NCBI GenBank assembly: GCA_026025075.1
Contig: JAPEUI010000148.1
Span: 1 to 35,648, forward strand
DNA from: Vezdaea acicularis
Taxonomy: Eukaryota
Direction of reading: 5' to 3'
Length of the DNA: 35,648 nt
Shown here piece after piece: positions 2,832 through 11,706 of this stretch (position 1 is the first letter of the stretch; the number at the start of each line of letters is the position of its first letter). The position numbers and the translations under genes are program-made. Below the pieces are notes generated by a model. That model did not search any database, was not told the origin of the DNA, and saw only the letters and a list, made by a program, of their open reading frames with translations.

Positions 2832-5495
2832 CTAGCACGCCCATCCTTCCTTGACAGTGCCAACAAACCCCCCTAGACCACTAGAGCCATCTAAAGCCCC
2901 TTTCCCAACATCAGGCATGGCAAGCAGCTTCGCCCCGCGCTCGACCCATTCCGTTGACGAGAGAAACTCAAACCGGATGAGCGCAACAGGATGAGACGAT
3001 GGTGTACTTTTACTAAAGGCAGTCTTGAGGCCATTTTTCTCGTCGTTGGCGTCGAAGGTGAACAAGCCTATTTGAGATATCGCAGGCGACTGCTCGAGGG
3101 GCCGCTGAGTCTCTTCCTCAGTCTCTCCATCCTTAAGTATATCCACACCCTTGACAGTAGCCAAGACTCTTACACTAGCAACATAAAGCACTACTCTGAC
3201 AGCTTTACTAAGCGCCTCGGCGTCTTCCTTAGTAAAGCTACCGGTGATCCCCTTATATGGCTTTGGAAGCCTTTCGCCAGACCCATGCTTGGCGCCAATA
3301 AGGATCATACCTTTGCGTGGCTTTGGTATGGGAATAGTAGCATCATGAATGGTTTGAACAAGGCCAATAGTGCCAACCTGTCCCGCAAGTAGCTTCCTGA
3401 CGGGCAAGCGCAGATTACGGATGCTTACAACGCGAACGGGCCGCCATTCCATGCCTCTAGATTCGTCTAGGTCGCTTTCGGATTCAACATGAAAGGGGCC
3501 GAGGAACAACTCATCGCCGACGGCTACCTCTCCATAGCGTAAATGACCGCTCAAGACAGGCCACATGTCGGTAGGCTTGTTGATTCCGGCGTTTGAAAGA
3601 TATTCGGTTGAATTGGACAAGGCAAATACCTCTTCTACATGGAATAGGGGTTCGGGGGCATCCTCGAAATGGAGTTCAGAAATCGGACGAGTTGGCGGGG
3701 AAGGTATTGGCAGTAGACGCAGCAATGCATGCATCAGCCCAATTCCGATTCCTTTTACGGCGCTAGTTAAAACAATTGGGACCGTCGAGCACAGATTATC
3801 TGCTTTAATTCCTCTAAGCGTCTGGAGAACGTGCGTGCGATCCTGATCCGATACAGAAAGGTCAGAATTGTCTCCGGGGGCTTCCACTACACTGTTACTA
3901 GCACACAAGACTGGGCGTCGGCCAGCAGCCTTCAGCGTGGAAAGAACTTTGGCCAGGGTTTGTCGGAGGCCGGTCTTGGATGCAAGGTCAAGCTTTGTTA
4001 TGACCACCACGAGAGGAACAACGAGCTTGAGGCAGAAGTCAAGATGGGCCTGAGAGAGATCGACATCTACGCCGGATGTGCCCAGTATCTCTTGCGCAGA
4101 CGATGCGCTTCCAAGTTTGCCCACTGAAATCTCGCCTTCGTTCGCAGCAATACAGAGAAAGGTCCAGTGAGGCGCCCATCCTACAAGCCCACGCACTGTC
4201 GTTCGCCGATATCGAGGATGACCAGCAGAGTCAGAGAAGAAGACTAGTCGACCATAATCCGCAGACGCATGGATATCTGTCCATGAAGATATATTACCGG
4301 ATGCATAGTTGATAACTACATCTTTCCTTGAGGAATGTTCCTCAGACGCTCCCTTGTACCCAATGAGTTCTTGAGCGACTGAACTGGTTACACCCGTCAA
4401 CAGCTCATGACGATGTCTCAAGAGGCTGAGCCTACTCTTCCCACGACCATTATCGAGTGTTGCTGTCGAAAGGGTTCCCAAAAGACTGGACTTTCCCGAA
4501 GTGGTGGCACCAGTCAATGAAACGCGTAGCTGCTCTGTAGTCGACTGCACGCTCTCCACAAATGGCCGATTCTCTTTATTTTGCAGTGGTTGATTATTTT
4601 GCTCGTCGATTAAACGCACGTTCCCAAGAGTAGAGATCTCTCCAGTTTTGTATGATCCGCGGTCAGGCTTTACAAGCGCTTCAGCGACCCAAAGACTTTC
4701 CGAACGAAGAGATTGGATAGGGGCGTTGTTGTCGTCTTGGGTCTCCTCCAACCATTCGCATCTACCGACAATGACTGCTCGTAGAAGGTGCACCCTGCAG
4801 CCAAGAGAACTAGCCATGGATCTTAAATTATTCAGACTCTCTTCCATCTCTTCTCTTGTAAGGCCCACAAAGGTGCCATCATCAGAAACTCCTATCTCAT
4901 ATAGAGCGCCTTTGCTCTCCTCCAAACCTGGCAGAAGATGACCTGGCCTATTTGGCTGGGAAAGTACAGATGGAGTCTCTGATAGTTTAGGTACGATCAA
5001 GGTCCCAGAAGAGGAAGAGTGATAAGGGGAGGATTGCTGTAAACGCCATAGTAGCTGCGTGGTCAGGTGTTGCAATCGGTTCTGACGGGATGAGTTAGAT
5101 GGCATGGGGAAGTTGGAACTGCCATCATCTGGTGTTCCCACTAGAGGGATTGCAATATCTTCTGGAGAATTGACATGGCCTAGTGTTGAATGATGGGACC
5201 CTGAAACACGCTTTGCGGTTGTAGAGGAGACAAACGATTTGCGTGGCCTTAGGAGCAAGTGCAACTTATATTCAGTAGGACCATCCTGCGGTTCCGCCTC
5301 AAGCTTGTCAATGCCACAATCTGCAAGAAGCTTTGGATATGACGACTCTAGTATATCCTTCTGATCTTCAGGAGTCAGGAATGGGGAGATCGTCTTCGCT
5401 TCCTCGTTCGACGTCTGCTGGGTAGACACCGATGGGGCCAACCACGGAGAAGATACACGTGGAGGATTTGGATCGTATGTAAAGATGGATGCCAT
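2832..5495 (-). CDS. GTPBP1/GTPBP2-like translational GTPase, about 887 aa, no intron evident
   Basis: G1 GATTSGKS, switch I RHRHELLTGVTSSV, G3 DSAGH, G4 TKLD, G5 TSAV; N-terminal EYKL...LLWRL...ALYEIGVSDDG block typical of the family; EF-Tu-like barrel region. The first ATG (MASIFTYDP) is at 5495; the ORF-track start at 5573 is a TTG. Confidence 0.85.
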   Translation of the reverse strand: MASIFTYDPNPPRVSSPWLAPSVSTQQTSNEEAKTISPFLTPEDQKDILESSYPKLLADCGIDKLEAEPQDGPTEYKLHLLLRPRKSFVSSTTAKRVSGSHHSTLGHVNSPEDIAIPLVGTPDDGSSNFPMPSNSSRQNRLQHLTTQLLWRLQQSSPYHSSSSGTLIVPKLSETPSVLSQPNRPGHLLPGLEESKGALYEIGVSDDGTFVGLTREEMEESLNNLRSMASSLGCRVHLLRAVIVGRCEWLEETQDDNNAPIQSLRSESLWVAEALVKPDRGSYKTGEISTLGNVRLIDEQNNQPLQNKENRPFVESVQSTTEQLRVSLTGATTSGKSSLLGTLSTATLDNGRGKSRLSLLRHRHELLTGVTSSVAQELIGYKGASEEHSSRKDVVINYASGNISSWTDIHASADYGRLVFFSDSAGHPRYRRTTVRGLVGWAPHWTFLCIAANEGEISVGKLGSASSAQEILGTSGVDVDLSQAHLDFCLKLVVPLVVVITKLDLASKTGLRQTLAKVLSTLKAAGRRPVLCASNSVVEAPGDNSDLSVSDQDRTHVLQTLRGIKADNLCSTVPIVLTSAVKGIGIGLMHALLRLLPIPSPPTRPISELHFEDAPEPLFHVEEVFALSNSTEYLSNAGINKPTDMWPVLSGHLRYGEVAVGDELFLGPFHVESESDLDESRGMEWRPVRVVSIRNLRLPVRKLLAGQVGTIGLVQTIHDATIPIPKPRKGMILIGAKHGSGERLPKPYKGITGSFTKEDAEALSKAVRVVLYVASVRVLATVKGVDILKDGETEEETQRPLEQSPAISQIGLFTFDANDEKNGLKTAFSKSTPSSHPVALIRFEFLSSTEWVERGAKLLAMPDVGKGALDGSSGLGGFVGTVKEGWAC

Positions 5496-5907
5496 TGCTT
5501 TAGATACTTCCCCCCTTATCTCGAGCCGTATACCCCTCAGATCTCTGCTGCACTCTAACTTCGAAGCTTTCAAAATAGAGATCTATTTCGTATTCGCCGA
5601 GAAAAGACCTCTATATCGAGCCGGAGTAACGATCTGGTATTAGTGTGAGCGCGATGAATGCGAAACAATCGTGACATTGGTGGAATCATCTTGGTTATTA
5701 GGATAGTGTTGTCGGACAAAGGATGGGTCCAATCGTAGCGGCAAGCTGGAGGAGCTCTAGACAAATAGAATGGACAAAGATGACATCTTGTCTTGGTGAG
5801 TAGAAAGAGTAATGATGAAGGTTTTGCAGGCACGGAGTCTTTGCCGTTGCTGGAATCTTTATGACAGCAGAGTGATGACTCGAGCTGAATAGTAGCGATT
5901 ACGACGG

Positions 5908-6090
5908 CACCCTCTGAGCAAAATAGTTGAGACAGCAGAAAATTAGCGAGGTATCTTCTCAGCGAAATTGTGCGAGAGGGAACCTCGCTTCTAGACAAAT
6001 GCAAGGGAGGTAAAGTACCTCACCGCACTGATTTGGTGAGAAGGTACCTCGCTAATTTTTTGCTGTCTCAACTATTTTGCTCAGAGGGTG
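5908..6090. mobile_element. Non-autonomous DNA transposon (MITE), 183 bp, 54-bp TIRs, 5-bp TSD GACGG
   Basis: 5908-5961 matches the reverse complement of 6037-6090 at 52/54 positions, with weaker symmetry further in. GACGG occurs at 5903-5907 and 6091-6095, immediately flanking the element. No transposase coding capacity. Confidence 0.88.
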
Positions 6091-6638
6091 GACGGAGAGA
6101 CTGCAACTCGTAACGCGAAATCTTCATGGCACGTGAATTTAGCCTGGAGCACGTGAGCTCTCACTTTTTGAATCGTGTTTAATGAACTTGAGCGATGGCC
6201 CCTTTTGGGCAGAATATCTTCAACCATAGGGAGCTCGTATGAGTTGCAAGTTATCTATTATTAACTCTGGCCATGATTTACAGCCTGAACCTGGTGTCGA
6301 TCTGGTCATCACTTTATCTGGTTAAGTGAATGCTGGTAACAAGCGGCATCTAAGCTCAAGTATCCATTTCAACAAGCAAAAGGTGCTTTGCGACAACCTT
6401 TAAAACGGCCAATCCAACCGTGAGATCCTAATCTCATCTATAGTCTAACATTTCCATCGAGTATGCAGAAGGGATCCGGTGCTTATGAGCTGTGAAAACT
6501 CGAGCCACGCATTTCAGAATGAAATGGGGAGCAAATGTTCAGGCCTTCTGAACTCCTACAAACCAACACCTATCACGCCCAGCGCCGCAGACCCTGTGCA
6601 GTCGAATAGCTTGAAATGAATGTTGGCCTTCCAGATTC

Positions 6639-11706
<5,068 letters not shown>

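Follow-up and report, generated by a model that had tools for sequence, protein, structure and literature searches.

A MITE with a 5-bp GC-rich target-site duplication in an ascomycete genome and the Tc1-derived, non-TA transposase that probably moves it

A 183-bp MITE with a GC-rich target-site duplication (TSD) of 5 bp was found in the window, the whole 35,648-nucleotide stretch of Vezdaea acicularis DNA analysed here. It was concluded, with a probability of about 0.9, that this MITE is non-autonomous and is mobilised in trans by a DD37-40E transposase of Tc1 descent, from a fungal lineage that has lost TA specificity. The evidence came from the copies of the MITE in the genome, from long elements with related ends that carry a transposase gene, and from relatives in other genomes.

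The element, its GACGG duplication and its 54-bp TIRs, which had been described from the letters alone, were all re-found (Table 1). The arms differed at element positions 31 and 47 alone, which left 52/54 identical positions with the outer 30 bp perfect, and the inverted repeat reached 67 bp at 90% identity. By comparison with random 183-bp junctions within the window, the chance of an exact 5-bp flanking repeat was 0.00094. The MITE sits between a gene with a GTP_EFTU domain and the AROM gene. The best named matches of a window gene, in Aplosporella (37%) and Aspergillus (32%), indicated a divergent filamentous ascomycete host and bore out the ascomycete origin proposed earlier. Elsewhere in the window, a 12-bp tandem repeat, Gly/Ser-rich and inside a short reading frame, was observed at 2117-2443.

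Table 1. Coordinates of the window MITE and its surroundings, and of long elements in the genome
Feature	Position	Strand	Length	TSD	Remarks
Window MITE	5908..6090		183 bp	GACGG
Left target-site duplication	5903..5907	none			GACGG
Left TIR	5908..5961	+	54 bp		begins CACCCTCTGAGCAAAATAGTTG
Non-coding interior of MITE	5962..6036	none			inverted repeat weakly continues to 5974/6024
Right TIR	6037..6090	-			52/54 against left TIR
Right target-site duplication	6091..6095	none			GACGG
Host gene with GTP_EFTU domain (context only)	2832..5495	-			first in-frame ATG at 5495, ~410 bp from MITE
Pentafunctional AROM gene, main reading frame (context only)	6706..10896	-			3' end ~615 bp from MITE
Long element C135			1285 bp	CCTCG	ORF with one stop
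Long element C274			1271 bp	CCGCC	ORF with one stop, first catalytic residue D-to-N
Long element C190			1250 bp	ACAG (4-bp subgroup)	intact 371-aa DD37E ORF
Long element C249				none	decayed
Long copies with CGAAG/CGAGG ends	C276:17345-18531, C79:22418-23598, C312:1028-2214, C216:1830-3008				ORFs open in C276 and C79

A BLASTN search for other copies, as the sequence-only reading had suggested, showed that the element is multi-copy, with 37 matches on 14 contigs. The closest other copy was 92% identical, and the remaining near-full-length copies were 78-88% identical. Because the subfamily changes of these copies occur in both arms simultaneously, the identity of the two arms is no clock, and the recent insertion that had been deduced from it was not borne out.

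Among 27 two-ended elements in the genome, 22 had an exact 5-bp TSD, three a 5-bp repeat matching at 4/5 positions, one a four-bp TSD and one none; an added pattern search gave six further two-ended MITEs, five with a 4-bp TSD and one with a 5-bp TSD. The pooled 33 members thus comprised 23 with exact 5-bp TSDs, three at 4/5, six with 4 bp and one with none, and TA was present on both sides in 0/33. The 5-bp GC-rich TSD claimed for the MITE was confirmed as genuine, and over the tabulated set the TSD length went with the TIR subfamily. All these counts are lower bounds from BLAST and end-pattern searches; six inspected candidates and 8/14 in the later pattern search were left out as single-ended or chance pattern matches. 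One 5-bp TSD in the genome, and one in the foreign relatives described below, fall within C-runs where the length is ambiguous. The GC content was 77% for the 5-bp and 71% for the 4-bp TSDs, and the target consensus of the 5-bp TSDs was a loose palindrome, tAs-SSNSS-sTa. The 4-bp-TSD subfamily (6/7 members) was found at C190:125643-126892 and, as MITEs, at C12:26474, C24:356, C119:12816, C171:6976 and C135:86254.

Nested insertions showed the origin of the duplication. Removal of the inner copy and one 5-mer restored a sibling of the window MITE in both C35 (92%) and C111 (85%), and in the long element C249 a MITE lies within one TIR between two copies of ACATG, a pentamer present only once in the opposite TIR. 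It follows from these three cases that the duplication derives from the target. Mutual insertion among family members accounted for 3 nested cases/33 (C35:43026-43395, C111:7054-7431 and C249:34323-35934), and next to the C249 long element, within a few bases of its end, lies a fourth MITE. For the window MITE itself, no joint skipping the element (empty site) was found in four moss-metagenome runs of one study that contain this stretch; these consist of low-depth contigs and possibly include the source sample.

Four long elements of the same end family, each with TIRs and one ORF, were found in the genome (C135, C274, C190 and C249), and the only intact ORF among them was that of C190, of the 4-bp subgroup. 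Such longer elements had been proposed as the place to look for a Transib/RAG1-type gene; they exist, but their ORFs are of Tc1/IS630 type and no RAG1-core-like protein was found in them. The long-element protein matched PF13358 (DDE_3) above the cut-off and HTH_Tnp_Tc3_2 weakly. The D-to-E spacing was DD37-40E in most clade members, and the catalytic triad was intact in C190 and in the foreign 5-bp elements L075, L076, L095 and L118. Coding elements were 1250-1285 bp long in this genome and 1270-1803 bp in foreign relatives. A profile built from 59 relatives matched the Sleeping Beauty catalytic domain with an E value of 8.5e-24. The predicted transposase model had a pLDDT of 82.7, and with it the top 15 Foldseek rows were all Sleeping Beauty, Mos1 or SETMAR. 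The structural matches of this model had Z 21.0 and rmsd 7.0 over 210 aligned residues for Sleeping Beauty, and Z 19.6 and rmsd 2.5 over 193 for Mos1; Z was 19-21 for the Sleeping Beauty, Mos1 and SETMAR matches and 10 for the next family. By its domains and predicted fold, the transposase is assigned to the Tc1/IS630-type DD37-40E enzymes, nearest to Sleeping Beauty and Mos1.

The clade proteins contain two CxxC motifs, in the linker and the clamp loop, which together might bind zinc. They were rejected as an explanation for the 5-bp stagger, since 3-bp elements and one TA element carry both too; the motifs are older than the 5-bp state. In the 5-bp clade, several residues are inserted into the clamp-loop segment that corresponds to Mos1 R186/F187/K190, and YFNC replaces WP before SPDL. 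Residues H217, E270, F298 and N299 (C190 numbering) are conserved in the 5-bp clade, against all 9 three-bp/TA proteins compared.

No long element with the exact window-subfamily TIR CACCCTCTGAGC was found in the assembly, the best match being 16 of the first 24 bases. In the left TIR of the window MITE, 20-23 of the first 33 bases agreed with the ends of C135, C274 and C249, which code for transposase, and the MITE interior was partly common to sister MITEs with other TIR tips (C203, C12, C24 and C119). Of these, C203 has interior sequence in common with the window copy (75% across 72 bp, E 2e-10) and carries the tip of C135 (23/24), while C12, whose interior is weakly similar, carries the tip of C190 (23/24). 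A further sister MITE, C271, has the tip of C274 (24/24) and, like C285, matches C274 at both ends. The TSD length of C203, C271 and C12 (5, 5 and 4 bp) was in each case that of the long element with the same tip, C135, C274 and C190. This is the pattern expected if a Tc1-type enzyme that reads the TIR tip sets the stagger, and we infer from these sequences that it would do so. Between the window copy and MITEs whose ends are the same as those of Tc1-coding elements there is a graded series. TIR distance correlated with protein distance (Mantel rho 0.33, 2/2000 permutations), which counts against the ORF as cargo.

Transposition by this Tc1-derived enzyme was weighed against three alternatives. 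A Transib/RAG-like transposase, missing from an incomplete assembly, could move the MITE, with the Tc1 ORFs as cargo between Transib-type ends. The CAC terminus, the A-tract near 30-35 and the 5-bp GC-rich TSD are shared by the element with Transib/RAG1/ProtoRAG and agree with Transib as described in the available part of the Transib paper; Transib-like proteins have been reported in some fungi, Erysiphe pulchra included (PMC9435367), and a Transib gene could be missed in an assembly of only 19 Mb. However, all long elements recovered between these ends are filled by a Tc1 ORF, the TIR type changes together with the Tc1 protein, and 4-bp TSDs occur in the sister subfamily and in its Tc1-coding element alike. 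According to the same part of that paper, Transib ends comprise a CACAATG heptamer, a 23-bp spacer and an A-rich nonamer; the nonamer then lies at ~31-39, and the Transib A-tract that had been put at 13-16 was misplaced. No CACAATG heptamer was found (the heptamer here, CACCCTC, agrees at 3/7 positions), and CAC is not kept across relatives, which also end in CAA or CTC. The clade partners encode a Tc1-type protein of 355-390 aa with unrelated architecture. Transib identity was rejected on this translation of the long partners (Tc1-type DDE_3), so that the sequence-only reading was partly supported: its fallback of an undescribed 5-bp-TSD transposase stood, but Transib/RAG did not. The RAG1 profile PF12940 had no match in the genome, but it matched no control genome either and the assembly is incomplete; Transib/RAG chains were absent among the listed fold matches, which excludes nothing on its own. 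A Transib-like mover was judged highly improbable, and the resemblance of the clade ends and TSD to Transib looks convergent.

Another superfamily with 5-bp TSDs, such as hAT5, Ginger2 or an unknown enzyme, might move the MITE, with chance or capture accounting for the end sequences that it has in common with the Tc1 clade. Such TSDs are made by hAT5 families and Ginger2 (PMC12730594 and PMC10045372, in the parts available), and the window-subfamily TIR is only 60-70% like the long elements. But hAT termini, as far as the source describes them, carry G at position 3, where the genome copies have C, and the partner elements encode DDE_3 rather than a hAT transposase. The graded MITE series leads from the window copy to Tc1-coding ends, and the extended target consensus is identical for MITEs and Tc1-coding relatives; this alternative was therefore considered very unlikely. 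Still less credible was a misplacement of the ends, by which the element would be a Tc1 MITE of the usual kind with TA flanks, or would include the 5-mers. There is a weak TA preference 4-5 bases outside the target centre. Yet the flanking 5-mer varies among copies and is repeated directly rather than inverted, the three nested insertions are exactly the element plus 5 bp, and the same procedure recognised canonical TA-flanked Tc1 elements in this genome.

The named relatives of the clade transposase were all from Pezizomycotina, Pyrenophora tritici-repentis, Colletotrichum, Hirsutella and Drechslerella among them. The Pyrenophora tritici-repentis member (EDU42948.1 group, with EDU44168.1, EDU44512.1 and EDU44516.1) is one protein on 14 contigs with 51% identity to C190; in the P0028 cluster, this member is annotated 'HMG box protein' though it is a DDE_3 transposase. 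A metagenome scan confirmed 292 loci, of which the best 80 were taken forward; after 37 without paired TIRs, 6 without the terminal motif in register, 2 at contig edges and 5 duplicates were dropped, 30 distinct two-ended relatives remained, with ends placed by a motif that was picked after seeing the data. In this set from the best 80 of 292 loci, 18 relatives had a 5-bp GC-rich TSD, nine had no TSD, one each had 2, 3 and 7 bp, and TA flanks were found in 0/30. The 5-bp TSD was seen in 18/23 relatives on contigs of >=2.3 kb and in 0/7 on shorter ones, so that 7 of the 12 relatives without it, among those best 80 loci, came from short contigs; this absence would fit collapsed assembly. The target consensus of the foreign relatives was that of this genome's family, and ORFs of 355-390 aa were kept in 5 of the 18 foreign 5-bp relatives. 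One relative (L096:668-2024) has an open 382-aa ORF and a 7-bp direct repeat, CCCAGGT, and two close relatives on short contigs have no TSD; it is possibly a further TSD length in the clade. No relatives were found on viral contigs.

The genome also contains more distant Tc1-like elements, with shorter TSDs. Five TA-flanked elements from four families were found, and one family had the 3-bp TSDs TAA and TTA (C294:121026-122205 and C1:20940, L186) and branched between the TA and NNN groups. Elements with CGAAG/CGAGG ends had 3-bp TSDs of varied sequence in 11/17 copies and then in 9/17 further distinct copies, the latter counted after removal of one duplicate and one alternative start; in the remaining 14 of these 34 copies no exact flanking repeat was present. 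This sister family is abundant (92 end matches, including many ~270-bp MITEs), and its flanks are often CTA...TAG, about nine bases out. The careful tree had 32 rows and a midpoint root; an earlier, larger tree was a quick search only. In the careful tree the branching order was three TA elements, one TA element carrying both CxxC motifs, TWA, NNN, and then the 4/5-bp clade, with supports of 99/91, 97/93, 91/92, 94/92 and 100/99, the last being that of the 4/5-bp clade, which takes in proteins of Pyrenophora, Colletotrichum and Hirsutella. The 4-bp C190 is nested inside the 5-bp clade, and clade members 53-65% identical differ in TSD (4 vs 5 bp). This tree, in which the TA and 3-bp steps come from one genome under a midpoint root, is suggestive of an order TA, TWA, NNN and 4/5 bp, and the history may have been stepwise in that way.

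Integration by mariner/Tc1/IS630 transposases is described as confined to TA targets, with a stagger of 2 bp; in Mos1, both 3' ends are joined after excision to a bent target whose adenines are flipped out, with W159, R186, F187 and K190 holding the bend (all PMC5481204, in part). By analogy, the clade transposase probably catalyses the insertions seen here with cut-and-paste chemistry as for Mos1 and Sleeping Beauty. It would bind TIR tips of ~30-40 bp and excise the element, whose 3' ends would be joined to the two target strands at points separated by 5 bp (by 4 bp in the sister subfamily) within a loosely palindromic, GC-rich tAs-SSNSS-sTa site; gap repair would then leave the 5-bp duplication. 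Speculatively, the wider stagger might come from a remodelled target-binding face, with the clamp-loop insertion and YFNC for WP, together with the other residue changes, widening it on a two-CxxC background.

In several respects the family is like Tc1 elements such as Sleeping Beauty and fungal impala (DD37E): a ~1.3-kb element with ~30-bp TIRs and one ORF (PMC7325037, in part), DDE_3 with a weak HTH_Tnp_Tc3_2, a CA..AAAA-type TIR tip and the structural matches to Sleeping Beauty and Mos1. It is unlike them in its TSD of 5 or 4 bp, GC-rich and never TA, in its D-to-E spacing of mostly 37-40, and in the two CxxC motifs, the clamp-loop insertion and YFNC for WP. TSD type is used in superfamily assignment (PMC4122938, in part), and ITm elements are said to generate TA TSDs 'in general' (PMC10045372, in part). 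Because TA was absent throughout (0/33 in the genome and 0/30 among relatives), the family is classed as a variant lineage of Tc1 descent rather than as a canonical member.

The ITm-related Tc4/Tc5, ciliate TBE1 and Neurospora Guest have 3-bp TSDs, and we know of no GC-rich 5-bp TSD among them or in Zator. Zator resembles the clade in being ITm-related with a TSD longer than TA (3 bp; PMC10045372, in part), as in the 3-bp sister families of this genome, and differs from its 4-5 bp. In hAT5, hAT6 and hAT7 the TSD length likewise changed within one superfamily (PMC12730594, in part). That superfamily is another one, and hAT elements have no fixed target sequence, whereas the clade also drops Mos1-type TA recognition. 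A hairpin element of Pyrenophora tritici-repentis, PtrHp1, is reportedly ~166 bp long with TIRs and 4-6-bp TSDs, and to our knowledge has no transposase link. Its host carries a multi-copy member of the clade; the likeness is by description and a lead only. Two Zymoseptoria MITE families are also alike by description, being ascomycete elements with 5-6-bp TSDs and no transposase assigned in the part of the source available (PMC4522978).

On the whole, we lean towards the wider reading that the clade is an ancient, unnamed Tc1-derived lineage across filamentous ascomycetes, undescribed in print or curated libraries, whose stagger went from 2 to 3 bp (TWA, NNN) and on to a GC-rich, subfamily-specific 4/5, perhaps 7 bp, converging on the Transib/RAG signature. 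A literature search of mainly non-subscription papers, in their main texts, gave no account of a Tc1/mariner element with 4-5-bp non-TA TSDs. Clade members could be within the supplements of PMC7325037, PMC3538342 and PMC4522978, and since they occur in well-studied genomes, a Repbase/Dfam entry may already record the TSD. The group, which is widespread in fungi, indicates that the textbook TA target rule of the Tc1-type family can change in nature. If a single fold supports a natural series of 2-, 3-, 4- and 5-bp staggers, the residues that set target geometry and sequence choice would become directly testable in the Sleeping Beauty family. A GC-rich 5-bp TSD combined with CAC ends is not diagnostic for Transib in fungi, and the lineage may account for unassigned fungal MITEs with 4-6-bp TSDs.

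A TWAGCGA-like motif was also observed at window positions 5944-5949. It recurs in the inner TIR ends of C135, C249, C276, C294 and C6 and, at ~30-40 bases from the end, is common to otherwise differing Tc1-like families of the genome.
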